In this document: one piece after another, positions 1-62,100 of the stretch | Layout of the letters: every line of letters begins with the position of its first letter | Numbering within the stretch: position 1 is the stretch's first letter | Source: a virus | Strand: one strand, 5' to 3' | DNA length: 64,000 bases | Virus record (IMG/VR): IMGVR_UViG_3300032286_001377 | Location: 1 to 64,000 of that record | Made by a program: the position numbers and the translations under genes | The notes under the pieces: generated by a model | The model's database searches: none | What the model was told of the DNA's origin: nothing | Seen by the model: the letters and a program-made list of their open reading frames with translations, nothing else

Positions 1-215
1 AGTGCCGGTAGGTCCAGTAGCACCGGCTGCACCAGCAGTGCCGGTAGGGCCAGTAGCACCGGCTGCACCAGCAGTGCCGGTAGGGCCAGTAGCACCGGCT
101 GCACCAGCAGTGCCGGTAGGGCCGGTAGCACCAGCTGAACCGACAGGGCCGGTAGCACCGGCTGCACCAGAAGCGCCGGTAGGTCCGGTAGGACCAGCCG
201 CTCCGGTAGGTCCAG
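1..215. repeat. 36-bp tandem repeat encoding collagen G-X-Y triplets
   Basis: The unit agtgccggtagg(t/g)ccagtagcaccggctgcaccagc occurs about three times near-exactly, then degenerates. Confidence 0.9.
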
Positions 216-1809
216 CAAGTGTAGAATTGACCCAAGCTGTACCATTCCAAACTAAAGTTTGATTAGGTAATATACTAAATATAGATACATCACTAATATC
301 ATCTAAAATTACAGACCCCATTGCTGTACTATGATCCAAAAGATCATGTCTAGCATCTGTAAGATATTGAGTATGGTCATCATCAGAAAGGCCTGTAAGA
401 GATCCGTGATCAGATACAGCAGTAGACGGTATCGAAGATGAAATAGAGTCTGCTCGTCTTATGTCAATAACAGAAACAAATTTAGATTTTGGAACATTAG
501 TATAAGTATTAGCTGTTTTAATAACTATTTTATAAAGAGGCCTGAACTCAAAAATAGGAAGCCCAGATAAATTCATTGAAGACCAATCAATACCTTCAGC
601 TGCACCTTGTGTATTGTATTGATCTTGTCCAAGGATACAAATAATCGGTTCGTTAAGATTATTTGTTGCTACGATCCATGAAATAGCAAACTTGTTATTA
701 CCAACATCAGGAGTTGTCCATGTGCCAGCTGTATCAAGGTTATATGTTATATGTGAAGTTCCAAACTTCATTGGATATTGTGTTGCCGTATCTTTTATCC
801 ACGCAGTACCAGAAAGGTAGAATACTGGAATATAAGCGCCACCCTGAAGCCTTTGTTGCCAAGTATTTACTACAGGAGTAGCAGAATGGGTTACGGATAT
901 TTTATAATCTTCATCATAAAATATCCCATTGGCAATGTCGATTTTTGCATCTGCATTTGATGAGCCAGTACCGATAATTGTATATCCGTTAGCCCCAAAA
1001 CCACTCGCAATAGCCGCACCGCGAGTCATATGTAGATACTCATGAGTTTGCCAGTCCATGGTCACACCATGGCGTTCATCTCCAAAGAAAAACATTTTTG
1101 CGGTGGGACTATACCAGTAGATGTAGCAAACTGGAACTTGATTGGCTAAATCAAAAAATGTTGTACCATAATTTAATACACCATTAACATCATAGTATAT
1201 GTAATATAAACCAGTAGTATTCGGTATTGTTACAGTTTCGGTTCCAGTCTTAATATACTGCAACCCTTTTGCCCAAAATTCATAATAACCAATAGTTGGC
1301 GCAATAGAAAATGTTCTATTAACTTCATTAAATGAAATATTACTTGTTCCATATGAAACGAAACCCATAGGTTCATTAGATGGAAGTGTTGTATTAACCC
1401 ACTCTGCACCATCGTATTTAAGAATTTGTCCAGCTACAGCACTAGATATAGAAACATCTATTGCATCATTTAATGCAAATGATGCCGATAAAAACTTTGT
1501 TCCATCAAACTTTAAAACGTGATCTATTACCGCACCAGTAGTATCAATTTCAATGCCATTTACAAATATACTATCAACATATACAGAACTAGGGAGACTT
1601 ACAGTGTAAGCTCCCGAAGTTTCTGTAACATTTATTTGATTTACTGTACCAGATATACTGGTTATAAGCTTAGAGCCGACAATACTTCCAGATGCATTCT
1701 TGTAGAAGAGTTTGCCATCACTATAATTTAATGCTAACTCACCAAATGCTAGAGAAGCAGGTGCAACCGCAGCTGTGCCAGAACGTTTTAACTGAATTAC
1801 ATTAGCCAT
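1..1809 (-). CDS. Collagen-repeat tail/head fibre protein (3' end runs off the window)
   Basis: Not in the ORF track. The ATG at 1809 follows RBS GAGGTG. The frame reads [37 protein letters not shown] (a common phage fibre N-terminus), contains [20 protein letters not shown] spacer motifs, and ends in G-X-Y repeats ([12 protein letters not shown])n. Confidence 0.85.
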
Positions 1810-35517: not shown

Positions 35518-36103
35518 TTACTTTATTTTTTCCATAAGCGTTATTGTATCCAACAGGTAGGCCCTGTCCGTATCCACTAGTAAATACTGTAGTGCTTGTT
35601 ACACCATGGAATTCTTCGGGAATAAAATATCCAAATGAGCTAGCAACACCAGCTGAACCATATGCTCTAACTCCATGGCCAACATTAGTCATAACATCAG
35701 CAGATGGGACACCATCAAACTTAAAGTTACTGTATAGCGAATAACGACTTACAGCATTTGCGTCATGACCATATCCACTGGTGAAAGCTGCAGCTCCAGC
35801 AAGTCCTTTGTATTCAAGGGGGCGATATCTTGAACCGGTATACTTAGAGCCATTTTGGAATGTCCCAGAAAGAGGGTGAACATAAAGAACTGTACCGTTA
35901 AAGATTTGCGAAAGCAGTCTGTTACCAGGATACTTTCCAGTACCTGGGATGTAGTTATTGTCAGGCGCACCATCTAATACGTGAGATGTGCTCCAGTTCT
36001 CCCAAAAAGAATACTTACCAACAGTCCCCTTATAGGGGTGAACCATTCCGGCGGTAGTCCGTCCCTTCAGAACTGGTCTAGGCCCTACATAAAAAGTTGC
36101 CAT
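35480..36103 (-). CDS. Gly/Tyr-rich putative virion protein
   Basis: Internal repeats (EYKGL/EYRGL, FTSGYG twice); RBS AAGGAG; TTACTATA upstream. Confidence 0.55.
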   Translation of the reverse strand: MATFYVGPRPVLKGRTTAGMVHPYKGTVGKYSFWENWSTSHVLDGAPDNNYIPGTGKYPGNRLLSQIFNGTVLYVHPLSGTFQNGSKYTGSRYRPLEYKGLAGAAAFTSGYGHDANAVSRYSLYSNFKFDGVPSADVMTNVGHGVRAYGSAGVASSFGYFIPEEFHGVTSTTVFTSGYGQGLPVGYNNAYGKNKVNEYRGLPSARAL

Positions 36104-36133
36104 CTTATTTCTCCTTATTAGAAATCATATGAA

Positions 36134-36141
36134 TATAGTAA
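36134..36141 (-). promoter_or_regulatory. TTACTATA motif, putative phage late promoter
   Basis: Intergenic, about 30 bp upstream of the ATG at 36103. Confidence 0.6.
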
Positions 36142-36161
36142 TTTTAATTTATGGTTTTAAC

Positions 36162-37415
36162 TTAAATATATTCAATAATTAAATCACTCAAAACCGGAGG
36201 AGTTTTATCATCTAGCATATTTAAAGTAATTTCAATCCAAACAGCGTTTGATGCACCAGGGTTAGAAGTAGTATAAACACCAGCATCACTGTAAATCACC
36301 CTATAAGAAAATGCGGTTGACAAAAGACTCTGAGGAACATTGTAAATTTTTGGTGTAACATTAGTAATCTGAGAAATAACATCACCATTCGTTGGTGAAA
36401 ATTTAATAATAGTTTTACCAGAAGTCAAATATTTATCATATCTAATATCAAGATCAGATAGACCATAAGTATAAACATATTTGCTTAGCTCTTGGAAATA
36501 ATTTCTCTGTATAAATTTTATTCTGATAGCTGTTATATCTAACTCAGAAAAAACGAAAGCCAATGGAGGAGAATTTCTTATAGCATCTGCCGCAACAACA
36601 TCCCAGCCACCAGGGGGAACCTTTCCTATTGCAGATAATTCACCATCATAATATCCAAATCTGTTTAATGGAAGCCATCCATCGCCGGAGTTAAGACCAG
36701 GATTCTGCTTAGTGGTATATTCAACAGATAAAATATCGGTACCAAAAGTAGGGTATGGATTAAATTTAATCATATTAGTTTTTGCCGAACCGGATGACTC
36801 ATTCGGCACTTTTATATAAAGCCACATTTGAGCCCCTGCTGGAGAACTACTAGAGGAAATAATATTTCTTTTCCATATCTTCTCTGGTGAGTCCAATATC
36901 GCATTATAAATTGGAGTAGTATCAATTACTGCACCAGATGTGTCAACACCAGGAAGATTATTTTCAACCTTAGCTTTAAAGAAGTCAGGTATTATCTGTC
37001 CCGCATTGGCGCTAGAAAACTTTAATTTACTAAAAGAACTACTAGCAACTTTTGGTAAAGTAATAATATTATAAATAGGATCAAAACTTAAAAGATCTGT
37101 TGTAGAAACAGCAAAAGATGTATTCACAAAAGAAGAATAGTCTAACTGACTAAAAGAATGAATAGATATTACATTTGAAGCGGACTCTAAAGCTTGAATT
37201 CTGTCATCTAAATCTTTGATAGCTGCAGCAAGAAATTGGTGATCTTTTAATACTCTTTCAAAAGCTTGAGAAAGCTTATTATCAATGATATCACTCTTGT
37301 TATATAGATATACTAAATCTTTATAATTCTCTTCGATACGCGCATTGTAATCTGAGCTTTCTACTGGACCATTATATTGATAGTCTCGTTTTTTAGTATT
37401 TAAAATTTCACTCAT
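36162..37415 (-). CDS. Tail/baseplate structural protein
   Basis: N-terminal YNGPVESSDYN plus coiled coil; C-terminal PPVLSDLIIEY is similar to the ends of neighbouring proteins. Confidence 0.6.
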   Translation of the reverse strand: MSEILNTKKRDYQYNGPVESSDYNARIEENYKDLVYLYNKSDIIDNKLSQAFERVLKDHQFLAAAIKDLDDRIQALESASNVISIHSFSQLDYSSFVNTSFAVSTTDLLSFDPIYNIITLPKVASSSFSKLKFSSANAGQIIPDFFKAKVENNLPGVDTSGAVIDTTPIYNAILDSPEKIWKRNIISSSSSPAGAQMWLYIKVPNESSGSAKTNMIKFNPYPTFGTDILSVEYTTKQNPGLNSGDGWLPLNRFGYYDGELSAIGKVPPGGWDVVAADAIRNSPPLAFVFSELDITAIRIKFIQRNYFQELSKYVYTYGLSDLDIRYDKYLTSGKTIIKFSPTNGDVISQITNVTPKIYNVPQSLLSTAFSYRVIYSDAGVYTTSNPGASNAVWIEITLNMLDDKTPPVLSDLIIEYI

Positions 37416-40400
37416 TTACAATCCACTCTCTAGTCTTTGTACTGTTTTAAGTATTCTAGCAAGTTGAGCACTCAATTTATTCATTGTATCAACTTTAACA
37501 ATAGTACCATTCAATTGGTAGTAATTAGCAATTTCCTGTATTTCATCTTGAGTTAAAGCTCTTCTCCAAATAGCAGCACCGAAGAACTCAAAATCAACTC
37601 CAGATGTAACATCAGATCTTGCCCCAACCCTTAAAGGATAAGAGTTGGCTAAAGATCCTACGGAAACATCGGTAGCTTTATTATCAAAAGTTCCATTAAC
37701 ATACACACTAAATGAATCAGAAGTTACATCATGAACAAAAATATAATTAGTCGCATTCTCGATAAAAGTTTTACTTGGAGTAGTAGTAGATCCGCCAACT
37801 TGACCTGAAAGGTTACCTTTAACATTCAACATAACAGAATTATCTGACGCATTAGTCATTATTTCATATCCGGGATTAGTTTGATTATCACCTTTACTGA
37901 GAAGTCTTGAGTATCCCGCTATATTATTCCAAAATCTAGCTGAAAAGAAAATTGTATAAGAATCTTTTATACCGAAATCTAGAAGAGAATTATCTGGAGT
38001 TTCTAACCAAGTGGTTCCACCACCCATCAATAGTGTTGGACGAGTAACAGCAACTGTTTTCTTATTAGTATTAGATCTAACAATAGCTCCTGCTTGAGTT
38101 GGATTAGCTGCATCTAAATAAAATACTGCCTCCTTCAAAAGTGCAGTAGAAGCGGCCGTTATTGTGCCAGAATAGTGAGCATTGATTAATGCTACCTCTG
38201 CTGTCGATAAAGCTTTTCTAAAAATAAGACCTGCATAGAATTCAAAGTCTTGATAGTTAGAAAGCGAAGCTCCACCATTCACGCCAATTCGGACAGTATT
38301 CCCATTGGACAAGTTTCCAATAGTTGTTGTAGGTGAAGTGGCGCTAAACGTATTGTTAGAAAATGTTTTAATTGTGTTATTAGATCTATTAACTATTCCA
38401 CCAAACACACTAAAGGCTCCAGCAGTTACTGCAGGTCCCGTCTGGTTAGCTGCATTAGTTCCATCTCCAATAAAAAATCCAGGACTTACAGATGTAGTAT
38501 CATTAGAAAGGCTCCATCCCTGAGCTGCTGCACCTCCGCCCTTGCAAATATATCTACCATAACTTGCAGCAGTCCCCCACTGCCTCACCACTGCTACAAC
38601 AGAAACAGATTCAGTGTAGCTGAAATCTAGATTAGCATTATCTGCTATTTCCATATAGCTATTAGAACCAAAGAGCCAACATGGACGGCAAACAGCTACT
38701 GTCTTTTTACCACTAGTTCCTCTAGTAATTGTTACCGTAATATTATTTGCTGACTCAGTAAAAGTAGATTGAACAGTAGAGGATAAACTGGTAGCAAAGT
38801 TAATATCAAAAACTTTTGTTCCGCCTATACCATTTCGCCAAATAGCTCTATAAAATTTACCTGCGGCTACAGTATTTGCATTTCCACCAATAACCACACC
38901 TGGAGATGATGCTAAAACCGGAAATGCAGTAACACCAAGCTGAGAAACAGTTGAACCTAATTGAACCCAAGAAGTCGGCTCTGTAGTCTGATCCTCTGCA
39001 TAATAAAACTTTAAATCATGTCCACCTAAACCATTATCGACATCTATAGTGACTTTAAGCCAATAAGCTTTGCCGTCAACAAAGTTTCCAGGGACAGTAG
39101 ATTCTCTTGCCATCAAAGTAGAGTTTGACCCAGTTGGAAACCATTTTAAAAGAAGCTTTCCAACACCTGTTACCATAAATGTAAAACCACGGTTAGGGTC
39201 AGTGGATTCTCTTTCTATCAAAGTATGATTTAAACCACTAGTCCAATCATCTATCGCAACCCTACAAACTAATTCCATATCACCAGTAACATTAAATGCG
39301 GCATTAAAAGCTACATCCGCACGATTACCTGAAACTCCTGGAATATATAAATAATTCTCACCCGTATGAGCCAACCATTTCGGATCCGTAGTTGATGTTG
39401 AATTTGCAGTAATAGCGGCAGTATTATCTGGACCAAAAGTTGCTCCTGGACGAGCATTTAAAACCGCTCCTCCAGAACCTAGATTTTGCAAGTATAATGG
39501 TTTATCAACGCTATTCTTTGTGACTGTAGGTAAATCTATTATTTTTTGAGATCCACTAGAAATTGCTTTAGTAAAATTAACATCAGAAACTGTAGCTCCA
39601 CCAATACCATTTCTGACAATAGTTCTAAATACTTTTCCAGCAAAAGGTCCAGTATTAGAGTTTACGTTTCCTATTCCATAGATTCCACCTATTTCGAGGA
39701 AACTTGTATTAGGAGAAATTGAAGTAATGTTTGCGGTAGTTACAGGACCACCTATTTGAGTCCAAACTGTTGGCTCATCAACTTGATCTTCAGCATAATA
39801 AAAGCATACATCATTTCCACCAGTGCCATTATCTACATCTACAGTAACTTTAATCCAATATGTAGTCTTATCCACAAATGGAGGTATAGATGGACTAGAT
39901 TTAGAAAGAAGTGAACCACCAGCACCATCGGGAGCAATTCTAACATTTAGTCTTCCTGTATCAAGAATAGATAACGCAAAAGATCTCTGATTAGCATAAG
40001 GTCCAGTTGCATGTGTATTATACTTACCAAAAAAATACTGCTCAGTTGCTGGCGTCCAATCATCCGCGGCAACCCTGCAAACAAATTCAATATCTCTATT
40101 TCTTTCAATGCGAGCATTATTTAAAATACCAACTGAATACGCATTAAAAGAAGACTCCATGAATGAAGAGCAGAATTGTAGCTGTCTAGTAAAGTTAACA
40201 TTTACTACTTCAGATCCACCTATCCCATTTTTAATAATAACATTAAAAATCTTACCGCTAAAGGCATCAGCTGCGCCGCTATAATATGCGCCTATCGCCA
40301 ACTGCTCAGAGTTTACACCAAGACTAATATTACCAGTGCTATTTCCTGATCCTGAAATAGTAGAACCTATTTGAATCCATGTAGTTGGCTCAGAAGGTTG

Positions 40401-43400
40401 ATCTGGTGCCCAATAGAACTTAGCATTGCAACCAGTAGTTAAATCTACAGTATCGATTGCAGCCCTAACCCAACAAGGCTTACCTAGTAAAACTCCAGCT
40501 GCAGCATATGTAACGTCTCCAGTTAGAGACGAAACAAGTGATCCATCAGAAAATCTAAAAACTGGAAAACCAGAATTATTTACGAATAACTGATAACCAC
40601 CCATAACAGATGAACCAGATCCTTTACTTACAAAAGCCTGGGAAGCAGCAAACGTATTAAATTGCACCCGTGCGCAAATATCAATATTTCTTTCTCTCTC
40701 AATTCTAGAACCAGAACCAACCATTGTTACAGTCATAGCATTAGATGAAGACTCTACAAAAGAGCTAGAGAACTGTATTAGTCTAGTAAAATCTACATCA
40801 AGTACTTTAGTTCCGTTTATGCCGTTTCTAACTATTGCTCTAAAATATCTCCCGCCCATAGGGGAATATAGTGATGGGGCACCATTTGTTCCAATACCAA
40901 TACCAAAGGGTTGTACACTGGTATTTAAATTTCCAGTAGTATTTCCAAAAGATGTACCAATAGTTATCCATTGTGCTGCTGTTGGCTCAGCTTCTTGATC
41001 TGGGCAATAATAGAATATAACATCACCAGAAGTTGCGTTTCTTGTCGCTTTTAACCAGAGTGGAGTACCACCAACTGTTGGCCTACCAGTAGTCCAGTTT
41101 ACTGATGCGAAAAAGTTTGTAAGACTCGTTGGCGTCAATCCAAGTGCTAATGCATTAGACGTAATATACCAGTAATATTGCTGTCCATATCCCTTACCCA
41201 TAAGAATAACCGGTGAAGATGGTGACCAAACTTTTGGCGCTATCTTACAAACAAGTTCTAAATCTCCAGTAATATTTAACGCAGCATTGTCTGGCAACGT
41301 GGCGTAATTATCATAACGGAAAGTCACAGTGGTAGCAGACATAGCTGCAAGTGTTCCATTATTAATTGTTACTGTTGTTCCAGAAAGATTAGTGATAAAA
41401 GTATTTTCTGCAATAAAACCAGTAGCCATAACGCGCTGGCCTATAAAAAGATTAGAACTGCTGGCTACAACAATTGTAGTAGCGCCTACTGTAGCCTGTG
41501 TAGCTGTAGTAGTGATGGTAGTCGCATCTTGATACATATATGTAGTTCCATCAACAATCCTTGCTGCAGAACCAGTAACTGAAACTACTTTACCAGTTGA
41601 TTCTGTGAAAGATGTGGTCCCAATTCCCACTGAACCAAAGTTTGCATTAAAAACTGTTGTTCCATTAATTCCATCTTTAACTATAGCGTTATAAAATTTT
41701 CCTGCAGACATTTGAGTACCGCCATTTACGCCACTGCCAATATAAAGATTAGCACTTGTAGGGTCTATCGTTGAAGCCGCACCAGGAGGACTTGTATTTA
41801 TAAGTGTCCATTGTGCAAGAGTTGGCTCTGCTGTTTGCGTTGAATAATAAAAGGATGCTTGGCTCGTAGCGACCGAAACTGCACATCTTAACCAACCAGC
41901 TTGACCATTCGTAAAAGGTGGTGCACCTGTAGCAGTGATCACTGTTTGTCCACCAGTAGTCCACCAAACAAATTCTGGAAATCCGCTCCCTGTATTGTTA
42001 ATACGGAAAGAGTAAGCTGCGCTACTAAGGCTCCTTTTTGCTACAAGACCTTGATAGTCTAATGAAGATTTCCAGTTATCTAATGCTACCCTAACAATAA
42101 TATCGATATCACCAGCAATATTTAATGTCGATACACTTGGCGTAGATGCATAATTTCCAGAAGTACCAGGAAGGCTCAAAAATTTACTACCCTCGGTACC
42201 TAAAATATCTAACTCGCAACTAGTTCCAATACCTTCATTACGAAAGTACATAGTCGTAGATGTGAAAGCGGCAATCGTGGGATTGCTAATTGTTATAGTC
42301 GTTCCAGAAACATTAGTGACAAAAGTATTATCAGGAATAGACCCACTCAATATCGCTCGTTGCCCGACGACAATTCCGGTTGCACTAGTTACAACAATTG
42401 TAGAAGAACCAACCGTAGCCTGAGTTCCTGTAGCTTGAATCAAACCATTAAATACGTCAGTTACATAAGCATAACTATTTGGACTAGTTAATCCAGATCC
42501 AAACATATAAGTTGATCCATCAACTATTTGAGCTGATTGAGAACTAAGAATTACAGAATGTCCAGTAGAGCTAGTAAAAGATCTAGCTCCAATAGCGGCT
42601 TTAGTAAAATCAACATCTAAAACTGTTGGTCCATCAATTCCATTTTTCAATATTCCACGATAGATTTTTCCAGCCATTCTTTCGCCACCGGAGTACCCTG
42701 CGCTTTGTGTACCTGCGCCGAAACCAACGATAAATCCAGATGCCGTTGCCGCACCAATGTATCCAACAGAAGATCCAATTGAAATCCAATTAGAAGGATA
42801 AGATGTACTATCTGGTGCATAATAAAATCTCACAATACCCGTACTAGCTTCACGTGTTACTCTTAACCAAACAGTTTGACCATCACTTGGCCTTCCTGCA
42901 GCTGTAGTCCAAGTTATACCAATAGACCTTAATGTGCCACCACCCATAAAGTAAAATCCAACATTAGACGAAGAGGCAGAAAGCCAAAATTCTCCAGCAT
43001 ATCCTTTGCTCATTATGATCTGATTAGCTGGATAAGAGTTCCAGTTATCTAATGCTACACGACAAATTACTTCAATATTACCAGTAATTTTTAGCTCTGG
43101 AGAATCTGGAACATAAGCATAAGAGAATCCTGGACCTCTTGCTACTGAGAGAAAATGTTCGCTTTCAACACCTAAAATATTTAGACTATCATCAAAAGGA
43201 ACAGAAGCGTAGTTACCAGAAATTCCTGGAGTATACAAATAGTTTTCGCCAGAATGACCTAATAATACTGGCGAACCATTATATGTTGCATTTAAAGCCG
43301 CACCTCCCCACCCCTTATTTTGCATAACCGTTTCTCCAACGGTAGATTTATCTACATCCAACCAATACACAGCGTCACTAAATACAGAAAGATCATCACG

Positions 43401-43685
43401 CATAAAAAGACTGACATCACTAACATCATAACTTAAACCATCATTCAATAATGATGCCGCAGTAATGTCATCTATGTCACCAATAAAAAGCTTGACATCT
43501 TCAAGGATAGAAGAATCAATAGAATCAAGTTGATTTTTAATTCTAGTCAAATCCAACTTTAAAAAATTTGTTTCAGCGTTCTCTAATTCACTACTTCTTG
43601 GTCCGCGATATTTCATTCTATTTACTTGGAAAAGTGGTTCTTTAAATCTTTCCACTTTATCTTGATTTGTAAATGTTTTTGACAT
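37416..43685 (-). CDS. Large tail fibre / receptor-binding protein with multiple LamG/ConA-like domains
   Basis: Repeated (D/N)IE..CRVA.D.W...GK.YR.I..NGI.G..V.DV.F units and DFEF..A.I.R.AL ends. Confidence 0.75.
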   Translation of the reverse strand: MSKTFTNQDKVERFKEPLFQVNRMKYRGPRSSELENAETNFLKLDLTRIKNQLDSIDSSILEDVKLFIGDIDDITAASLLNDGLSYDVSDVSLFMRDDLSVFSDAVYWLDVDKSTVGETVMQNKGWGGAALNATYNGSPVLLGHSGENYLYTPGISGNYASVPFDDSLNILGVESEHFLSVARGPGFSYAYVPDSPELKITGNIEVICRVALDNWNSYPANQIIMSKGYAGEFWLSASSSNVGFYFMGGGTLRSIGITWTTAAGRPSDGQTVWLRVTREASTGIVRFYYAPDSTSYPSNWISIGSSVGYIGAATASGFIVGFGAGTQSAGYSGGERMAGKIYRGILKNGIDGPTVLDVDFTKAAIGARSFTSSTGHSVILSSQSAQIVDGSTYMFGSGLTSPNSYAYVTDVFNGLIQATGTQATVGSSTIVVTSATGIVVGQRAILSGSIPDNTFVTNVSGTTITISNPTIAAFTSTTMYFRNEGIGTSCELDILGTEGSKFLSLPGTSGNYASTPSVSTLNIAGDIDIIVRVALDNWKSSLDYQGLVAKRSLSSAAYSFRINNTGSGFPEFVWWTTGGQTVITATGAPPFTNGQAGWLRCAVSVATSQASFYYSTQTAEPTLAQWTLINTSPPGAASTIDPTSANLYIGSGVNGGTQMSAGKFYNAIVKDGINGTTVFNANFGSVGIGTTSFTESTGKVVSVTGSAARIVDGTTYMYQDATTITTTATQATVGATTIVVASSSNLFIGQRVMATGFIAENTFITNLSGTTVTINNGTLAAMSATTVTFRYDNYATLPDNAALNITGDLELVCKIAPKVWSPSSPVILMGKGYGQQYYWYITSNALALGLTPTSLTNFFASVNWTTGRPTVGGTPLWLKATRNATSGDVIFYYCPDQEAEPTAAQWITIGTSFGNTTGNLNTSVQPFGIGIGTNGAPSLYSPMGGRYFRAIVRNGINGTKVLDVDFTRLIQFSSSFVESSSNAMTVTMVGSGSRIERERNIDICARVQFNTFAASQAFVSKGSGSSVMGGYQLFVNNSGFPVFRFSDGSLVSSLTGDVTYAAAGVLLGKPCWVRAAIDTVDLTTGCNAKFYWAPDQPSEPTTWIQIGSTISGSGNSTGNISLGVNSEQLAIGAYYSGAADAFSGKIFNVIIKNGIGGSEVVNVNFTRQLQFCSSFMESSFNAYSVGILNNARIERNRDIEFVCRVAADDWTPATEQYFFGKYNTHATGPYANQRSFALSILDTGRLNVRIAPDGAGGSLLSKSSPSIPPFVDKTTYWIKVTVDVDNGTGGNDVCFYYAEDQVDEPTVWTQIGGPVTTANITSISPNTSFLEIGGIYGIGNVNSNTGPFAGKVFRTIVRNGIGGATVSDVNFTKAISSGSQKIIDLPTVTKNSVDKPLYLQNLGSGGAVLNARPGATFGPDNTAAITANSTSTTDPKWLAHTGENYLYIPGVSGNRADVAFNAAFNVTGDMELVCRVAIDDWTSGLNHTLIERESTDPNRGFTFMVTGVGKLLLKWFPTGSNSTLMARESTVPGNFVDGKAYWLKVTIDVDNGLGGHDLKFYYAEDQTTEPTSWVQLGSTVSQLGVTAFPVLASSPGVVIGGNANTVAAGKFYRAIWRNGIGGTKVFDINFATSLSSTVQSTFTESANNITVTITRGTSGKKTVAVCRPCWLFGSNSYMEIADNANLDFSYTESVSVVAVVRQWGTAASYGRYICKGGGAAAQGWSLSNDTTSVSPGFFIGDGTNAANQTGPAVTAGAFSVFGGIVNRSNNTIKTFSNNTFSATSPTTTIGNLSNGNTVRIGVNGGASLSNYQDFEFYAGLIFRKALSTAEVALINAHYSGTITAASTALLKEAVFYLDAANPTQAGAIVRSNTNKKTVAVTRPTLLMGGGTTWLETPDNSLLDFGIKDSYTIFFSARFWNNIAGYSRLLSKGDNQTNPGYEIMTNASDNSVMLNVKGNLSGQVGGSTTTPSKTFIENATNYIFVHDVTSDSFSVYVNGTFDNKATDVSVGSLANSYPLRVGARSDVTSGVDFEFFGAAIWRRALTQDEIQEIANYYQLNGTIVKVDTMNKLSAQLARILKTVQRLESGL

Positions 43686-43694
43686 TCTACCTCT

Positions 43695-45836
43695 TTACGA
43701 TACATCGTTATGTTTAAATTTAATTCTTATTGCGTCCAAGATAGGAGTTTGAAGTGGATTAGAGTATCTATTAAAATCTACACGATATCTAACAGCACTA
43801 ACTTCCTGAGACTTATCTGAATAGTACTTCAAAATACTTCTTTTAGAAATTTCTTTTGAAGCCAAAAGATATTTAGAACCATAAAATGAATCTATAGTGA
43901 AAACATTTAAACTTGAATCAACTTTATTTCTAAATTCAATAGGATCTAAATATGAAAAATATTCCATAAATACTGTACCATAATCAAACAAGTTTGCTCC
44001 AACCATTAGATCTAGACTTACTCGGTCATTAGAACTATTATCATAAGCAAAAGTTATAGTATTAATACCTTTAACAAATTTCCATTCTAATCTAGAAACC
44101 GTTTGTCCAGATGGAAGCTCGCCAATAATTGTACCATTTAAATATATAGAAAGATTAAAAGTACCAATTTTAGTAATAGTATGAGATACAGTTCTTTCCT
44201 CACTTGATAAAAGCTTAGTTTCAATTAATTCAGAACAAGGGCCAGAAAAAGCTGAAGTAAAAGATGACGAATAATTTGTAAAAATAGTTTTTCTTAATTC
44301 TAAATATGTTGAATCATTAATAATCTCAGCCCAACCCTGTAAAGAATTTGACAAATTCGAACTAACACTACTAAGCGATGGAATTGAATAAGATTGAAAA
44401 TTATTCAGACCAGAAATAACATAAGGTTGCAAATATGTAGTCGTATCACTCAAAGACGCCACACGATATGCCTCCCTATCCGAAAAAGGTAAAGTAATAG
44501 GATTTAATTCGTTTGCATTAGGTGAGGTATTATTAAGTGGAATCAAAACATAATCAACATCGAGGGTATCATCAGCTATATCTATATATTCAGAAACTGC
44601 ACTAGAACCAACTAGTGAAACTACATTTGGGATTGCTCCCGCATCAGAACTACTAGGCTCAATTGGTATCCAACTAAAATCATACACCCCGACAGCTGAC
44701 TCTGAGTCGACTGCAACATAATAAGATAAACTTGTACCTGAAACAGTTTGCTGCTTAGCGTCAAGTGCAACTGAACTAATAGATAGTAAACTATTATCGG
44801 AAATCGGAATAGATATAGGCTTGGATATTAACGTAGCTCTTTCATCGTAGTAATCTGCACCGATAGAAAGCTCTCTAAAACCAAACGTATAAACATATGG
44901 TGCAGTAGTGCTTTGCACTACTTTGTCTGGTTCTTCTTTATATAAAGTCAAATAGATTGCACTATATGAATCATTAGGTAACAAAAATGCAAATCTATTA
45001 TAATCTTCCTTAGAAGTTTTGCTACGTATAACTTCTGGTTTATCAGCAGAAACTGGAACAGCTTTCATAAAAATAGAACAAGGGGATTGGCTTAAAATTG
45101 AACCCTGTATTTTAGATATACTAAATCCAGTATTAATTGGAATATTAAAAGTAATAGAAGCTATACCTGGAGCATCAGAAGTGTGATCGTGAGACCAATA
45201 GGTGTCATTTAGCCCATCAAAAACGGCATCAAAGTTAGATACAGTAGTTGGACCATATACGATTGAATTATTAAACGTTACAGTAGCTTTCACATTAGAT
45301 AAAATCATTGATTTAGTTGTTATCTGATTAGATATTTCCGAAGTAACTTTTGGAATAGTCACATGATTATTAATAATATCAACAAACGCAGAAGTTTTTT
45401 CTAGATCAATAAAAGTTGTATTAGAAAAATTTTCTAAATAAGAATAGAAAAATCCGTCAGAGTTTGCATTGGCGAAAAGAAGTTGATCTATTTTAGATTC
45501 AATTTCTTTTCTTTTAGCTCTTAAATTATCAAGCTTCATATTCAAAGCATTAACGACAGAAAAAATTTGTTCATTATTTTCCATTACACAATCATACAAT
45601 GTTTCTAAATTCAATAAAGTATTTATCATCACCTCATTTAAAGCATGATGGCTAACAGTATTAGTGGACTGTATCCTATCTACATCAATTGAAACTGGTT
45701 CGCCTAATTTGTTATAAGAAAAATATTGATTATAAAGTTTTTTAATTTCATGATCAGATGGCTTATTTCCCGTAGAATAAAATAACTTATAAATATTATA
45801 GAGAAATTTTCTTTTTTGAACTGTTGAAATATTCAT
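43695..45836 (-). CDS. Tail/baseplate structural protein
   Basis: Beta-rich; C-terminal TPILDAIRIKF is shared with neighbours. Confidence 0.6.
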   Translation of the reverse strand: MNISTVQKRKFLYNIYKLFYSTGNKPSDHEIKKLYNQYFSYNKLGEPVSIDVDRIQSTNTVSHHALNEVMINTLLNLETLYDCVMENNEQIFSVVNALNMKLDNLRAKRKEIESKIDQLLFANANSDGFFYSYLENFSNTTFIDLEKTSAFVDIINNHVTIPKVTSEISNQITTKSMILSNVKATVTFNNSIVYGPTTVSNFDAVFDGLNDTYWSHDHTSDAPGIASITFNIPINTGFSISKIQGSILSQSPCSIFMKAVPVSADKPEVIRSKTSKEDYNRFAFLLPNDSYSAIYLTLYKEEPDKVVQSTTAPYVYTFGFRELSIGADYYDERATLISKPISIPISDNSLLSISSVALDAKQQTVSGTSLSYYVAVDSESAVGVYDFSWIPIEPSSSDAGAIPNVVSLVGSSAVSEYIDIADDTLDVDYVLIPLNNTSPNANELNPITLPFSDREAYRVASLSDTTTYLQPYVISGLNNFQSYSIPSLSSVSSNLSNSLQGWAEIINDSTYLELRKTIFTNYSSSFTSAFSGPCSELIETKLLSSEERTVSHTITKIGTFNLSIYLNGTIIGELPSGQTVSRLEWKFVKGINTITFAYDNSSNDRVSLDLMVGANLFDYGTVFMEYFSYLDPIEFRNKVDSSLNVFTIDSFYGSKYLLASKEISKRSILKYYSDKSQEVSAVRYRVDFNRYSNPLQTPILDAIRIKFKHNDVS

Positions 45837-48037
45837 CTCTTTTTTACCTTTGCTATCAATTTATAAGAATAAACTACAGGAGTAATATTATAATTTCTAT
45901 CTTTAAACATTTGTATCTTAACTTTTACCGAGTTTATTTCAGTTGGAACTTCTGGATAATTGATATACGCAACACCTGGTATTTGATAGTTTATCGGGAT
46001 ATTTTTATTAAAAACCAAAACTTCAGCTATACCATTAGCTGATAGCTGAACAGGAGAAATTTGAATCCAGCTAGAATCATTAACTGATATAAAATAATTT
46101 AAAATTACTTTATCACTATATGAATTATCTACATTAGTTTCAGAAGAAATCATCAAAGATTCAATAGGAGTATCAAAATTATAAGAAGTAGAAACAACTT
46201 CTGCAGCATCTGCGTATGTTTCGTATGTAAAAGAAATATCTCTAATACCAATAGATTTCCTTTTTGCTTTATATAGCTCCTTTTCTAATGTGATTGGAAC
46301 AGAATAGCCAAGCACTTGAGTGACAGCAGTGTAAGTTACAGGCTCTATAACAATATCGCTAAATCTATATGTATTATACCCTGTAGTTGCCGTTCCATTA
46401 GGAAGACTGGCAAGATAGCTATTTACTGAAGCTAAATCATCAACAAGTTCTGCGGAACTAGGCGCATACTTTGCCGAACCAGCTAACTGAACATCGCCTG
46501 CAGATGGCTCAAACAAAGAGGCTGTATCAGGAACCCAAACAAATGATCTATTACTTCCACTTCCAATAAAATTATAAAAGTAAACTTTTGTTGAATTAGG
46601 CGAACCATTAACATAAGTTTTCATACTGATAGCATAAGCATCATATCTGACTGGCTTTTTCTTTAATCTAACTCTAACAACTTTAGAAATTCTATCTTTA
46701 TCTTTAAACTCATTAGGATTAGTTATCTGCGGAACAAGCGAATATTTATCATACTCAATTAACTCATAAACATCCGAACTAAACGCGCTCGGATTAAATC
46801 TAGATAAACCATAAAATGGAGAATCAATGCCTTGATTTGTTTGATAATTAGGCTTCCAATACGCATGAAGAATATCTACATCTTGATAAGCGTCTTGCTC
46901 AATGCTGACTTCAAACTTCAAAACTCTTAATTCAGAAAATCTAATTGTTGCTTTATTATAAAAATAATTATTTGCTATTTGCAAATTAAGCGGAGAAAAA
47001 GAAGAACCGACATATATCGTACCATTAAGAACTTCAGTAACATCACCATTTTGAAGAGTAGCTTTAACTGAAGTAACCTTGATTAAGCCCGTTGATCCAA
47101 AATAAGGTAAAATTGTAAAAGTATTAGCTAAGGTTGGTGCACCACATTCAAAGATCAAACTAAGCTTAACAGGATTAGACATATCAAAAGAGGACCAATC
47201 AATAAGTTCTCCTTCCGTTTTTCCAGCTACAACTTTTCTATTAGAAAGATAACCAAACTCATCATTTGATATGACAGCGCTATTAACAGCAGCGTTGCTT
47301 GACCTGTCAACATTAATTGCATCATACTCGAAATAAGTTAAAGGATTCTCATCACCTATTCCAGAAAGAGAAGCCAAAGTTCTGTTTGATTTATATATAT
47401 ATTCATAAACTTCTGTCTGATCTGAATTGACAGACTTAACTACCTGATGATTATTTCCAAGAAACCCATTAGATACAGACTGATTAATCTTTATAGACCT
47501 AGGAGACCAAGGTCTAATTCTTGATATCGGTAGTGTAAAAGATCCATTCTCAATATTGGGATTCATCCCAACAGGAATCAAACTTACATTTACTTGATCC
47601 TGATTATCAAAAGAATCACCCAAATAAACCAGATCATCAGCTGGTGCTTGAGAATACATTTGCAAAATTTTAGCTTTAGAAGAAATTCTTTCTAAATAAT
47701 TTTTCTCAGCTTCTATTTCTTGTACAAAAAGATTATACGCATTAACAGTCTTAGCATTCAAATAGTCTAACTGCTTAGATACAAGCGCAAAATCATTTCC
47801 AACAGATGCAGAAAAGGAATTATATTTACTAGATGTAGGAGGCTCTCCCTTTATATAAGGGACAAATTGAGTAACAGGACCTCCTACTGTCTCATATATA
47901 TCTGAGACAAGTTTTTTATATTCTTCAATTTTTTGTTGATTAGTTGCAAATTGATTTCTAACTTCTTTTGAAAAATAGTCTCTTACCTTTAAGTAAACTT
48001 GATCATAGGTTAAAGTATTGGAAGATATTTGAGTCAT
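45833..48037 (-). CDS. Tail/baseplate structural protein
   Basis: Same layout as neighbours (helical N-terminus, DSFDN, IGIRDI, C-terminal TPVVYSYKL). Confidence 0.6.
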   Translation of the reverse strand: MTQISSNTLTYDQVYLKVRDYFSKEVRNQFATNQQKIEEYKKLVSDIYETVGGPVTQFVPYIKGEPPTSSKYNSFSASVGNDFALVSKQLDYLNAKTVNAYNLFVQEIEAEKNYLERISSKAKILQMYSQAPADDLVYLGDSFDNQDQVNVSLIPVGMNPNIENGSFTLPISRIRPWSPRSIKINQSVSNGFLGNNHQVVKSVNSDQTEVYEYIYKSNRTLASLSGIGDENPLTYFEYDAINVDRSSNAAVNSAVISNDEFGYLSNRKVVAGKTEGELIDWSSFDMSNPVKLSLIFECGAPTLANTFTILPYFGSTGLIKVTSVKATLQNGDVTEVLNGTIYVGSSFSPLNLQIANNYFYNKATIRFSELRVLKFEVSIEQDAYQDVDILHAYWKPNYQTNQGIDSPFYGLSRFNPSAFSSDVYELIEYDKYSLVPQITNPNEFKDKDRISKVVRVRLKKKPVRYDAYAISMKTYVNGSPNSTKVYFYNFIGSGSNRSFVWVPDTASLFEPSAGDVQLAGSAKYAPSSAELVDDLASVNSYLASLPNGTATTGYNTYRFSDIVIEPVTYTAVTQVLGYSVPITLEKELYKAKRKSIGIRDISFTYETYADAAEVVSTSYNFDTPIESLMISSETNVDNSYSDKVILNYFISVNDSSWIQISPVQLSANGIAEVLVFNKNIPINYQIPGVAYINYPEVPTEINSVKVKIQMFKDRNYNITPVVYSYKLIAKVKKR

Positions 48038-56176: not shown

Positions 56177-59100
56177 TTATTCTTCCCCAGAATCTGGACG
56201 TATATTGCTGTAATTAACTATATAATTTGGAGTAGTTCCAAAGAGTCCCATCTGATACTGTTGTAGTCTATTTAAAGGAACCCAAGATGGAGGAATCCAA
56301 TTTGGAGTACTGTTAACCGAGTAAACATCAATGCTATTATAATGCTTAACAACAAAATTTGGAGTAGCAATAGGATTAGAATTCAACTGCGTTGCTGGCA
56401 TAAAAGCCGAAGGCAATGCTGAAGCTTCGTTCGCATAGTGTATATTGTCATATTTTTCATTCCAATAAGCTATATCACCAGTTATAGTAATGTTAGAAGC
56501 CAAAACAGTTTCCCCTAATGCAGCCAGTTTTGTCTGTATCTGGTTTGCTGTTTCATTTATTTCAACGGAAACAAACCATATTCCTGGATCACTTGCATCG
56601 CTATAGCTATTTATAGTTTCAAAAATATTAAAATATCCATTTGAGTCAGTTTGAGTATACGAGTAGCTTGCAGTGTTGAAAAGGTCATAGAGAGTTCTAG
56701 CTTTTCTATATTTGATAGCAACAGAAGCCAATAGTGGATTATCTTTCCAATAAATTTTTCCAACTATTGCAAGCTTGCTAATTCCATCTGTATCTACAGT
56801 AAATCTAAGTGGAGCCGCTTTAACTTTAAGATCAAAGGTTTTATCACGTATAATCTTATATGTTAACTGCTGAGAATAGCCTTGAGTCATACTATTGGCC
56901 GAGCTATTAGGAGTGCTGTTGGATAGCCCATTGGGTGTAGCAGAGCCGATTCCAGAAATATTAATTGTTCCACTAGAAGTTGTTGACAATATAGAACCAT
57001 TATATCTAACAGTTGTTTTAGCAAAACCATTATCATTAGTTGTCACATAAGGATCTGCTACCAAAATATCATTGCCACTAATATAGAAAGTTTGACCTGG
57101 TTTTAAGTTTCCATTTGTATCATAAGAGATAATAGATAGGTACATTAAATCATTAGAGGAATCAGTAATAAAATTGGGAGACAGATAAGCGGAGATTGAA
57201 CTGAAATTGAACTCATCTTTGGTAAGATAAACATATCCTTCACTAATTGGTGAGTCAATCTGACTTAAATTCAATCCACTATCAATAAAGTTATCCTTAT
57301 ATGAATTCTCATAAGTCACATAATAATATGAATTAGTTGAAGGCGTTGTACTAAAGTACGCTTTGGACTGGTAGTCATCTATTGAACTATTATAAACATC
57401 ATTCTCAACGTAGAATGCATCATTCACATAATAAACAACTTCATATTCTCTATCTACAACAGATGGAGTTGCCTGACTAAAAGGCGAAATAACATTCGTA
57501 CTGGAAGATAAGTTGCTAAATAACCGCTTACCAGTATATACATCAGTGACTGAAGCATTCTTGATATTTTGGTAAGACAGATAAAGAGAATTACTCTTTC
57601 GACCCAAAACTGTTTCCGTATTATAGAATGATCCATTACCTGGAGTAGATGAGTCCTCGAATACAAGATTTCTATACTCCTTACCTCCAACATTAGCGAT
57701 AATGGGTGCACCTTTTCTTGGAGAATTTGGTAGAGTTAAATCAAAGAATCTTCCATTATATGTTGCTGTCTCAGGATTAACATAAATGTATTGATCTTTT
57801 TCCTTAATATAAATCCAACCAGCATTAACGCCTAATCTATAATCATTTCGTCTAACTTCATCTGCTTCTGAATATATATCAACTTCAACATTATTTAAGT
57901 CACTATCACCCAAACTAGGAACTATACCATCTACCAGATATTCTTTAACTATTTTAATTTCTTGATCAGTTAAAACTCTTCTCCATATTGCCACGGCAGC
58001 CAATTCCATATCAGCATATCCTGAGTTGTTATAATACTGAGAGCCAATAGTCAGAGGAGTGTTACTGCTTAAAGTCCCTATAGTTGAGTCTGTAGCAGGG
58101 ACGCCCATTGTTGTATTAGCGTAAACATAGGTAGTGTCTTTTGAAACATTTCTTATACCAGTATGTGCCATTAGTGACCCAGCAACATAACCTGGGTTAG
58201 ATGCCCCTCCAGAACCACCTGCGCCTGATACGAAGTTTAGAGCAGCTACGCCAGTGTTTGCTTTAGAGAGGTAGTATCCACCAGTCGGATCCCACTTCAT
58301 AATAAAGCGTTGATCTGTTGCAGGCACTGACCAAGATCTTGCTACAGCCATAAGTGTAAATGAATCATTTAAACCGAAGTTCACAAGGTCATTATTGGGA
58401 ATAATAAAATAATCTGCCGCACCAGCGTCTGCGCCAAAAATCCAAACAGATCTACCACCATTAGCCTTAGATGGCATAACTACCATTCTACGACCAGTAG
58501 TTCCTCTATTCATAGTTACTAATTGGCCGGTATTGCAAGTAAAACTAACCTGTGCCGGATAAGTGATTGAATCAAAGTCAACATCTAAAACTGGATTACC
58601 AGCAAAAGAATCTGTATTCCAAATTTTTGCCCGATAATACTTTCCCTCAGGTCCAGCTAAGCCCGTATTAGAAGCTGCTATATAATTAAACGCAGCGTTC
58701 GAACGCAAAGACAATGCCGTACCACCAGGGTTAGCTGTTACAACAGTATCAAAAAGTGTCCAGTTTACGCCATCTAATGAAGTATAAAATTTCACGGTAT
58801 GCTGGAAAGTTGTATTGTTTATTGTGAGGGTAGCGCCAAACCACGCCTTAGTTCCAATTGGAATATTATGACCCTTAGTGGCGTAAACTAAACGAGAAGT
58901 TGTATCCGCACTAGAGGTGTAAGAGAAAAACATATTAGGACCAGGGGGTGTGCCTCCATTAAATCCTATTGAGTAGTTAGTAACCGAACTATCTACGCCC
59001 GATTGTCTCTTTCCTATAAGAGCTTTAGGACTAGCTACATATGTCTCAAAAGGTCTAATCTGCACGGCTAATGCAATATTGCCAGTAATATCAGTAGACG

Positions 59101-62100
59101 ACCCCACTGCTGATGGTATTGTGGCACCATTAGTGCCAGCTGAGATACTAGGTTGATAGAAATACCCTTTGTCCTCAACATCCAATAAGGTTGGATCAGT
59201 GTTAATCACATTGGTGCCATTAATCGTTACGACACTCTTATATATTGAATCTTCATTGAACTCAATTGTCCAATCTTTTTGCTTAGAAAAATCTGCATCA
59301 AAGACGGTAGGACCACCAATTCCGCCACGAATAATGACTCTATACAAAGAGCCATTAATTACACCGGCACCGCTGTCACGAGATCCAATTTCCAAATTAC
59401 CCGTTGATGCAGGTAACGAAACTGTTGGATTTAAAGTTGTTGTTCCAACTAATATCCAAGAATTCGGCTCTAAATCTTGACTTGAATAATTAGCATAAAA
59501 ATTAACAATACCTGTACTTCTAACTCTAGTAATTTTTATCCACTGAGTTTTTCCAGCGATGATAGCTCCACTATATGTATCTATCTCTGACCAAAAACTT
59601 CCAGTCCAATATCCAAATTTAACCTTACTAGGATCTGGATTAGCAAGAAGGACCCTATATGCTCCACTCTTTGAGAGAATGCTAACATCTGAAGTTAATG
59701 TATTTAAGTTTAATTTGAAAACTATTTCAATATCACCAGTAACATCAAGTCCATTATGATCATAAACACCTGCATAGTTGGATGTAATTCCAGGAAGATT
59801 AAGTGCACCATTTCGAATATGTGCTGAGCCAACATAAGACATAGAGCCAACCTGTGCGTCTAATACTGTGCCACCAGTACCAAGGTTGCTTATCATCTGA
59901 GCATTAAATGAAGCCGACTTAGCGTCTAGGTAGAGGACCGCATCTTTAAGTGGCGTAACCTTATGGCTCAATGAATTAGGATCTGCGGCAAAAGCTGTAT
60001 TCAAATCAGAAACAATTGCATCATTGCTATAGGTAAAAGAATCTATATAGTTAGGTGTAGTATTGAATTTAACCGAATCTACAATATAAGGAGTTGCAGC
60101 AGCTAGACCAAATGAGTTTCTATTTAAAGTAACTGTTTCTAAAAATTTATCTTCCAACAAGAATGAATTATTATATTCTTCCTCGTTCTTAAATACTCTA
60201 TTATTTTCGTCCAAGAAACCATAGAAGGTATTAGGTGCGGTTTCTGCTTCAAAATGTTCATAATTAGTTCTAACAAAAGGATATAAAACGCTATCTTTTG
60301 TATAGACATCAATATAATAAGGAGTAGATGAGAAGTTGATAGTAGCTTGATCAAAATAATCAGGACTTGCACTAACAGCTCCAGATAGATTACGAGGCTG
60401 CCATAAAATATTTGGAGAAGAAGGCACCAAATAGGTATCATCACTAATCGGATCTGTCGAATAGCCACCAGTAGCCTCAACATTTGAAGAGCTACCATAT
60501 GTAGGATATGATTTAATTTTATTAGGAGAAATAAATAAATACTGCGGAGTCGCCTTTTGATGCTTTAAAACTGTTTGCTTAACAAGTTCTTCTATTTGAA
60601 TAAGCGCATTAGAAACTCCGCCAACATTTAAAGTATTTGGAGTATTTAAAGCAATAGTGCCTTTATAAGTGTCAGAATTAAAAGACGCCTGCTTAGTTAC
60701 GTAAACATTTGAACCTAAATACAGACCCGCATTATATCTATCCAGATTAGGGGTAGACAAAGTCATCGTTGTACCAATTGTTGGATTAGATTTCCATATA
60801 GGTGTAGAACGACTAAAGTCTATCTTATAATTACCAACTGAAAGATTAGTATATGTTGGACTAACGCCTGTTGTAGTTAATGACCTTCCAAAAATAACAT
60901 TAATTGAAGCGGCCTCTGCAATATTAATGCTATTCTGCTTAGAAGTCCTTGTTGAATTGTAGTATCTCTGATTGAAAACCTTATCCCTGAATTCTAATTC
61001 AGCCAAAGTCATCCCTTGCTGATCAAATATTGGGATATAAGTGTACTCAGGGCTTGTTGGACTATTGGAAAGAAATTGATTACCTACAATAAAATCACTT
61101 CTATTATTATAGTTTAAATTTGCATAGAATGTAGATGGTGTAGCATAGTTGCCGTGGTTAGGCATGCTGATCTCATACACGACACCTGCTTGAACCTTTG
61201 ACGAATCATAATCTGCAACTGTAGCAAGATAATTGAAATACCAAGTATAATCTACTACTACTGGAGCATAAATTGTATTCGTGCTAATTGCTTTAAATCC
61301 AGAAATTTTAATGTTTCCAGAAAAAGAAACGGTTGAAGCTTCAGCTGGATATATGTCCACCATCGCATCATCAAAGTCTCCAACTCCAGGCTGATAAAAT
61401 GAACCCAATGGACTTGAAGCCTCATCATATACAGCTGGAATTCGAGAAACGCCCTCGCCATTTAACCCGGCATAATCCCAAAGTCCTTCATCCCACTTTA
61501 CATAGCCAATGTTAGATGGATATTTAAAGTTGAGATCTTCAACTAACTGTCTGAACTGCTGGGTGGGTTGTCCTGCATCAGTGAAATATGGTGTAGAGTT
61601 TTCAATATCTGATATCTCTAATATTTCTGGAGTCGCACCTGAGTAATCTGAATTTGGAGTAGCGCCATATGCTCTCCAAATGTCTAACTCTCGCCGCAGA
61701 GTACGCTTAAGAGCCTCATTTGATACCCCCGGCATATTTTTAGTTACATCTAAAATCCTTTTCTTATAATTAGAGTTAGATTCTAAATAAAGTCTTGGCA
61801 AGCTGACTCTTGCGCCAAACTCGTCAAAGTCATTAAAAATATTAATTGCTTCTTGGGTATATGAAATATCATTGACTTTAAGAGATGAAAACTGACGAAG
61901 AGTAAAAAGCTGTCTATCAACAGGACTATAATAGAAAGAATAATCGGTTGATCTACCATCCATTAGATCTGCGAAAGATCCAACCCTGGCAAGCTGGACA
62001 CTATCTCCTGATATTAAATTTATATTTTGAGGCACATTATATGCAACAAACATCCACGCAGTCATATCTTCATCTGCGCTAGCTATAAAAGAATCAATTG

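Follow-up and report, generated by a model that had tools for sequence, protein, structure and literature searches.

We describe a gene in a 64,000-nucleotide stretch of viral DNA (positions 1 to 64,000 of the IMG/VR record IMGVR_UViG_3300032286_001377; hereafter the window), the product of which is likely to be built of jelly-roll domains inserted recursively into domains of their own family. The gene is a single intact open reading frame of 2089 amino acids (aa) on the minus strand (37416-43685). Its product, P0001, would be the long form of a conserved ~130-aa virion (tail/baseplate module) protein carrying an array of ~1,960 aa between residues 98 and 2061, composed of six A-type and two B-type (Laminin_G_3) LamG/pentraxin jelly rolls and two 68-aa beta modules. 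Two of the A-type units, X and Y, would be split. X (hairpin 145-172, C-half 1197-1373) would hold the complete unit u1 together with Y in the loop that follows its hairpin, and Y (hairpin 392-497, C-half 1000-1196) would in turn hold the complete units u2 and u3 in the equivalent post-hairpin loop. The beta modules, M1 and M2, would be further insertions within hairpins, so that the nesting would be as much as five levels deep (host > X > Y > u3 > M2).

A self-BLAST of P0001 at its whole length returned the identity match alone, and the elements were found instead by self-BLAST of fragments together with purpose-built hidden Markov models (HMMs) iterated on 48 homologues. An A-type unit consists, in this order, of a 28-aa hairpin with strands 1-2 (H, consensus G.NYLY.PG.SGNYA.VP....LNI.G), a 165-aa C-half (C, consensus D.E..CRV..W ... 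GK.Y..I..NGI.G..V.DV.F) and ~30 aa of closing strands (S, consensus SF.ES.G..V.V.GSA.RI). The other elements are the 68-aa TQATVG beta module (M) and a 181-aa domain (B), the sole part of P0001 at the Pfam Laminin_G_3 threshold; over the whole protein PF13385 scored 32.8 bits against a gathering cut-off of 27.6, in two stretches, the best of them at residues 1889-2050 (B2). The six A units are below the Pfam threshold, match phrog_5313 and show weak kinship to the B units. Fragment self-BLAST and HMMs located six ~165-aa C-halves, at residues 202, 525, 807, 999, 1197 and 1468, and two Laminin_G_3-type domains (1663-1842 and 1878-2059). The order along the chain is lead-H, HCS, h[M1]..ELDILG, HCS, h[M2]H'CS, CS, C, lead-H C S', B, linker, B. 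After two of the hairpins (145-172 and 392-420/491-497) the chain goes on to a new unit and not to a C-half, and the C-halves at 999 and 1197 have no hairpin and start zero residues after the closing strands of the preceding unit (RIERERNIDICARV, RIERNRDIEFVCRV). Written with H as '(' and C as ')', P0001 and its metagenomic orthologues P0002-P0004 (80%, 55% and 52% identity to P0001, with identical layout) read (()(()()))()BB. Since these orthologues keep the layout, the gene is real and conserved. The HMM tokens and junction motifs place complete domains between the two segments of a host unit, an A1-B-A2 pattern in which u2 and u3 are complete folds.

The same grammar was found among relatives. 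We scored the 48 homologues and 131 further representatives, drawn from an exhaustive search with 2,900 representatives at E<=1e-3, with identical tokens throughout (179 family members). About 135 of the 179 are plain tandem arrays that lack both orphan hairpins and C-halves without a hairpin; orphan elements are present in 43, of which 41 are complete and two truncated (P0039, P0053). Each of the 41 complete nest-bearing relatives has as many orphan hairpins as hairpin-less C-halves, in properly nested order, a recurrence that excludes a chance pattern. The first automatic counts had given 10-15 of the 48 homologues as unbalanced, and on inspection these were explained by divergent hairpins that the 28-aa HMM had missed or by the truncation of P0039 and P0053. 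The nest-bearing relatives display six architectures: (()) in P0060; (()()) in ~17 proteins of ~1320 aa and in P0040, a paralog encoded in the genome of P0001; (()()()) in P0005, P0012, P0056 and P0068; (()(()())) in P0001-P0004, P0019 and P0041; ((()())()) in P0052; and (()(()(()()))) in P0023 and, truncated, in P0053. Among the 179 members examined, nesting is restricted to the sub-family around P0001. The orphan elements of P0001 and the 41 balanced relatives bear out the claim of an initial annotation, made from the sequence of the window, that the repeats are bracketed and not tandem. An ordinary tandem array of contiguous domains, in which u1 and u2 would carry an extra, locally packed hairpin and the units at 999 and 1197 would be functional jelly rolls without strands 1-2, is in our opinion unlikely, as it gives no reason for equal and ordered numbers of extra and missing hairpins in 41 complete relatives of six architectures.

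Two of the relatives show further features. P0040 (1197 aa; ~98-102 kb of the same contig, outside the window; loci L002, L003, L005 and L007) has its single-level nest, (()()), at residues 61-694, followed by an unrelated tail of ~500 aa. Also, in the homologue P0010 small beta modules (..V.I.G......NG.F.I..) at residues 257-287 and 1199-1297 lie inside C-halves, where they split one C-half into two HMM matches and mark a further insertion site in the A-type fold.

No relative of P0001 was found in the PDB by sequence, and the fold was approached through structure prediction. The AlphaFold2 (AF2) model of residues 360-1200, from a 41-row alignment, had a mean predicted local distance difference test (pLDDT) of 84.7 and a predicted template modelling score (pTM) of 0.81. 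In VIA-align, whole pentraxin, laminin-LG and neurexin-LNS chains superposed on model residues 139-354 (u2, as H+C+S) and 347-640 (u3, with M2 looped out) with Z 15-18.9 and a root-mean-square deviation of 2.4-3.3 A over 163-194 aligned residues, the targets being covered from their residues 1-4 (chain residues ~1-205). In the model, u2 and u3 have a LamG/pentraxin jelly-roll fold with the order H-C-S; X and Y were judged indirectly. Because whole pentraxin and LNS chains align from the hairpin on, the hairpin would form the integral first strands of the fold and a hairpin-less C-half would be two strands short, so that the units at 999 and 1197, self-sufficient in the tandem reading, would be incomplete.

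For the outer split unit, X-C (residues 1188-1400) was paired with X-N (98-175) in three complex-prediction runs, with our own alignment and three controls. The interaction prediction score from aligned errors (ipSAE) was 0.80, 0.78 and 0.78, and 0.00 in the best of the three controls; 58 of 80 solved complexes and 2 of 110 mismatched pairs scored at least as high, counts that are approximate because our own alignment was used. Contact agreement among the runs was at least 52%. The predicted interface joins the hairpin (147-164/167-172) to residues 1196-1199, 1206-1208, 1325-1334, 1344-1353 and 1366-1373; in it, strand 149-154 and the GKVFRTI strand (1347-1353) lie antiparallel to each other. 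Prediction supports the completion of X-C by X-N, and the predicted docking at ipSAE 0.78 against 0.00 in controls counts against a locally packed extra hairpin. The balanced counts and the hairpin/C-half interface are equally consistent with pairing in trans, where the hairpins of one chain would complete the C-halves of another and strand exchange would serve oligomerisation; indeed, many phage fibres are oligomers. We regard pairing in trans as quite unlikely, since it needs no nested order with the opener upstream, yet this order is invariant, residues 360-1200 gave a confident AF2 model as one chain (pTM 0.81), and the linkers at the junctions have zero length, as expected for insertion within a loop.

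For the inner split unit, residues 360-1000 were refolded without Y-C using the same alignment rows. Block pLDDT of the Y hairpin went from 79 to 61 (model 31-40) and from 72 to 62 (41-50), and that of ELDILG (131-140) from 78 to 56; the M1 blocks gained 7-22 points, and u2 and u3 kept the same values with and without Y-C. The effect in these models is modest and site-specific, in the direction expected from nesting. Y-N would then complete Y-C, and the inner nest is less secure than the outer one.

Paralog relations within P0001 give a further line of evidence. The nearest paralog of X-N is the N-part of u6 (52 bits, 41% over 70 aa) and that of X-C is the C-half of u6 (130 bits, against 82 for the next), both reciprocally. 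Because both halves of X have u6 as closest paralog, they would descend from one u6-like unit in spite of the 1,025 residues between them, a coincidence of origin that also speaks against contiguous tandem domains. For Y-N the nearest paralog is the N-part of u3 (50% over 36 aa). In the fragment BLAST, residues 168-491 resemble 492-797 (39-45% identity) and 808-999 resemble 1000-1197 (40-44%). The left part can be read as a tandem of hairpin plus unit and the right part as a tandem of C-half plus closing strands, which favours the tandem reading as far as it goes. Under the nested architecture, two matched tandem duplications would turn a (()()) ancestor into (()(()())), and either of them alone would give an unbalanced intermediate. 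The second nesting level may have arisen in this way. The initial annotation had invoked repeated self-insertion into surface loops; self-insertion stands as one option, and the internal similarity fits two matched tandem duplications better. In the tree of C-halves many outer closers cluster, but the noise is too high to date the nests. Taken from the bracket grammar, the paralog matching, the X-N/X-C complementation and the deletion control, the best reading of the orphan half-units is the one first proposed, that they are halves of discontinuous LamG-like domains.

The array itself appears to be enclosed by a small protein of another kind. A search with residues 1-100 of P0001 among shorter proteins found P0049 and P0050 (130 aa each) and P0051 (149 aa), and homologues of ~130 aa without the insert, which the initial annotation had suggested looking for, do exist in the syntenic slot. 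Residues 1-97 of P0049 align to 1-98 of P0001 (60% identity, E 8e-38) and its residues 102-130 to 2061-2089 (52% identity, E 1e-6), with four residues between both parts. Of the six short forms known, three lie in the syntenic slot; where P0001 has its array of ~1,960 aa, the short forms have 4-23 residues. In three Joint Genome Institute (JGI) metagenome contigs of freshwater or marine origin (L010, L011 and L012), an open reading frame of 130-131 aa lies exactly between homologues of the 713-aa and 417-aa neighbours of P0001. At least 12 genes (window 31000-56000), beginning with that of the 1835-aa protein and extending past ribonucleotide reductase, form a block that is collinear in these contigs at 33-70% protein identity, and the sole gross difference from the window is a 130-aa in place of a 2089-aa gene. 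Furthermore, the N-module and the C-tail occur together in long forms with differing arrays (P0001-P0005, P0007 and P0010) and are both absent from other family members. On account of the short forms, their synteny and this co-occurrence, P0001 is a 130-aa virion-module protein, one loop of which carries the ~1,960-aa array. Both termini noted at first (N, ~97 aa; C, ~28 aa) are real, conserved modules and, judged from these alignments, the real enclosure of the array is the ~98-aa N-module with the 29-aa C-tail. Uninterrupted counterparts are available for the host (the 130-aa short forms), for X (u6) and for the family (mostly plain tandem relatives).

For the 130-aa host, no convincing match was obtained from Pfam, PHROGs or the ESM Atlas, the sole one being a weak match of P0050 to phrog_19670 (E 0.013), and a scan of viral contigs for the short form found none. 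As side observations, phrog_19670 is the family of the 417-aa neighbour (window 36162-37415, minus strand), residues 13-65 of which weakly resemble the host N-module (E 0.37), and residues 32-109 of the 734-aa neighbour (45833-48037, minus strand) also resemble it weakly (E 0.001). These two neighbours and the host may share an N-terminal helical attachment module.

Several points weigh against the nested architecture. Sequence alone cannot separate nested from crossed pairing of the two hairpins; we infer that it is nested. In the predicted X-N/X-C complex the pLDDT of the partner is 41-46, and the lead at 98-146 (DAVYWLD..QNKGWGG) is outside the confident interface. Split-domain halves tend to succeed in such a test because of their resemblance to LamG structures already solved, as might a cousin hairpin, so that the complex indicates compatibility and not specificity. 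The deletion of Y-C costs the Y hairpin 10-22 pLDDT points, yet its strands remain predicted with pLDDT ~61, and no VIA-align row has a domain spanning Y-N to Y-C (model 33..838), the list being filled by the two complete inner units. Both observations suit contiguous tandem domains, although the silence of VIA-align on Y is uninformative because each PDB entry shows its best-fitting domain alone. Y-C is without a single clear closest paralog. As for the host, the tree of its module groups most long forms but does not discriminate between an ancestral short form and a later loss of the insert. Finally, no catalytic or known receptor-binding signature was found in P0001.

The initial annotation had also placed the whole array within one outer LamG domain, opening with DAVYWLD..QNKGWGG and closing with KKTVAVTRP...IWRRALT, in which a circularly permuted second copy (LQNLGSGG ... 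AVFYLD) would be inserted. Neither proposal is supported by the comparison of leads, linkers and profiles among relatives, and we consider this full version very improbable. DAVYWLD (104) and EAVFYLD (1852) are indeed similar strands, and P0005 and P0007 each have a B-type lead (AVFWAD..RKTVAVTRPVLLFG) that is cut short ahead of an A unit, with a later B core that begins at profile position 10. However, a DAVYWLD-type strand with an NLGxGG lead is the generic start of A-unit arrays and precedes plain, contiguous A units in P0005, P0007, P0010 and the 2224-aa neighbour of P0001. The QNKGWGG.. and LQNLGSGG.. leads belong to A-type and not B-type units, being the homologous leads of X and u6 (121-217 matches 1399-1483 in self-BLAST). 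B2 matches the entire B profile, and the linker before it is the same as for every tandem B in relatives, where an AVFWID-type strand is present in every B-B linker of BB, BBB and BBBB arrays. Moreover, the ~1320-aa relatives keep the same terminal BB without an N-terminal DAVYWLD strand.

As an observation on other members of the family, P0005 (residues 2373-3054) and P0007 (2187-2861) may each hold a split B-type domain, in which the B lead stops before an A unit plus B and the later core follows a shortened linker (AVLWIDANL). Since these two proteins may hold a split B, the idea of split B-type domains is not absurd for the family, while it is unsupported for P0001.

The features of P0001 are collected in Table 1, with the motifs of the initial annotation, all of whose coordinates proved correct; its two copies of the TQATVG module were located within the brackets as claimed.

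Table 1. Features of P0001 under the nested architecture, with motif positions. Residues are those of the protein; coordinates are those of the window.
Feature	Residues	Window	Strand	Description
Whole gene P0001		37416-43685	-	host{ X( u1, Y[M1]( u2, u3[M2] ) ), u6, B1, B2 }
Host N-module	1-98	43392-43685	-	60% identity to residues 1-97 of short form P0049
X-N	104-172	43170-43376	-	lead strands (DAVYWLD, QNKGWGG..) and orphan hairpin 145-172, ending LNILG; would open outer split unit X
u1	173-391	42513-43169	-	contiguous A unit: hairpin 174-202, C-half 202-362, closing strands 364-391
Y-N	392-497	42195-42512	-	orphan hairpin of putative inner split unit Y (TYMF.. 392-420; ..ELDILG 491-496), interrupted by M1
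M1	421-488	42222-42425	-	68-aa TQATVG beta module within Y hairpin
u2	498-714	41544-42194	-	complete A unit; model 139-354 superposes on whole pentraxin/LNS domains
u3	715-999	40689-41543	-	complete A unit with M2 in hairpin; model 347-640 superposes on whole pentraxins
M2	729-796	41298-41501	-	TQATVG module inside u3 hairpin
Y-C	1000-1196	40098-40688	-	hairpin-less C-half (RERNIDICARV..) and closing strands; would close Y
X-C	1197-1373	39567-40097	-	hairpin-less C-half (RDIEFVCRV..); would close X; predicted to bind X-N hairpin
u6	1394-1662	38700-39506	-	contiguous A unit with own lead (LQNLGSGG..); nearest paralog of both X halves
B1	1663-1842	38160-38699	-	Laminin_G_3-type domain
B1-B2 linker	1843-1877	38055-38159	-	AVFYLD strand and KKT; common to all tandem-B junctions in relatives
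B2	1878-2059	37509-38054	-	Laminin_G_3 domain, PF13385
Host C-tail	2061-2089	37419-37505	-	TIVKVDTMNKLSAQLARILKTVQRLESGL; 52% identity to residues 102-130 of P0049
DAVYWLD	104	43376	-	motif check
QNKGWGG	122	43322	-	motif check
LNILG	168	43184	-	motif check
ELDILG	491	42215	-	motif check
RERNIDIC	997	40697	-	motif check
RNRDIEF	1195	40103	-	motif check
LQNLGSGG	1399	39491	-	motif check
EAVFYLD	1852	38132	-	motif check
KKTVAVTRP	1875	38063	-	motif check
IWRRALT	2039	37571	-	motif check

The source of P0001 is a 115.5-kb IMG/VR viral contig with a completeness estimate of 55%, in which all large genes flanking it share its minus strand. By the PHROG matches of its neighbours, to families annotated 'virion structural protein', the gene lies in a tail/baseplate structural module. 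One neighbour bears a lysozyme-like segment and one distantly resembles virion proteins of Bacillus phage 0305phi8-36 and Moorella phage MTATph1. Pfam gave no match for seven proteins neighbouring P0001. Against cultured phages, megablast of the P0001 region returned zero matches and tblastn similarity to P0001 was limited to single units. The guanine plus cytosine content of the inserted array (window 38000-42000) is 0.386-0.397, against 0.308-0.334 in the flanks (36000-38000 and 44000-46000); this may reflect its Gly/Ala/Thr/Ser-rich composition or a foreign origin. Additionally, the baseplate-like 2224-aa neighbour (56177-62851, minus strand) holds an un-nested ()()B cassette at residues ~960-1640 (~57930-59970), with a lead of the form DAVLYLD..NLGTGG, two contiguous A units and one B domain. 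Since this neighbour carries the cassette, the LamG family is plugged into a second virion protein of this phage.

Regarding function, the array is putatively an adhesin, multivalent and probably glycan-binding, that is exposed on the tail or baseplate, a role to which we give about an even chance. The fold matches of P0001 in BFVD are phage structural proteins of the multi-ConA-like type and one putative adhesin. Because the chain comes back from each insert to its point of departure, the array would form a compact and branched body, its two ends meeting at the 130-aa anchor, and not a linear fibre; the label of receptor-binding fibre given by the initial annotation should be taken as putative. 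In more general terms, we lean towards a model in which a LamG cassette would be plugged into the loop of a small virion protein as into a socket and would grow by a bracket 'grammar', units or nests being placed after strands 1-2 of a sister unit. Close relatives have 0-3 split units, and growth of this kind would offer phages a general and evolvable route to compact multivalent adhesins. If true, it offers a natural model for the origin of recursive homotypic domain insertion, apparently via tandem duplications in matched pairs, with unbalanced intermediates between them. The comparative series is exceptionally rich and includes the 130-aa host without insert in syntenic sister phages, plain tandem relatives, and nests with one to three split levels, both right- and left-branching. 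This series makes testable how nested architectures evolve, how discontinuous beta-sandwiches fold and what benefit nesting brings to a virion adhesin, the candidates being adjacent termini, compactness and mechanical or proteolytic robustness. It also bears on annotation, as 'half' LamG matches or orphan strands in giant phage proteins may be halves of split domains and not decayed repeats.

The fold of u2 and u3 is common to pentraxins (CRP, SAP, PTX3), laminin LG and neurexin LNS domains over nearly the whole target chain, with just 8-15% sequence identity, and the known examples of these are contiguous domains. Similar in sequence and fold to the units of P0001 are the LamG-like jelly-roll arrays of multi-domain 'Concanavalin A-like lectin/glucanase' structural proteins and putative adhesins of tailed phages, and PHROG 5313; the BFVD matches comprise uncultured Caudovirales proteins, a putative adhesin of Pseudomonas phage PaBG and a structural protein of Cellulophaga phage phi17:2. 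Most of the family (the ~135 of 179 members given above) resembles these beads-on-a-string arrays, and the nested ones are the sub-family of P0001. In the literature, we found no report of nested LamG domains or of recursive homotypic nesting in phage virion proteins.

Domain insertion as such occurs in ~20% of multidomain proteins (PMC13114784). The recursive insertion of one family into itself has been documented mainly for SI3 of the cyanobacterial RNA polymerase beta' subunit (RpoC2), where sandwich-barrel hybrid motif (SBHM) domains are recursively nested up to six levels (PMC13114784 and works cited there), and P0001 would now extend it to a phage virion protein. SI3 is the clearest known precedent for a Russian-doll protein made from one domain family. 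Both systems have homologous domains recursively inserted in an A1-B1-C-B2-A2 pattern, with single hosts that receive several inserts. They differ in fold and setting, SI3 being built of SBHM domains in a cellular enzyme and P0001 of LamG/pentraxin jelly rolls in a phage virion protein. The nest of P0001 also sits in a loop of an unrelated 130-aa host that is free of insert in sister phages, and within the P0001 family, unlike SI3, the depth of the nest varies among close relatives.

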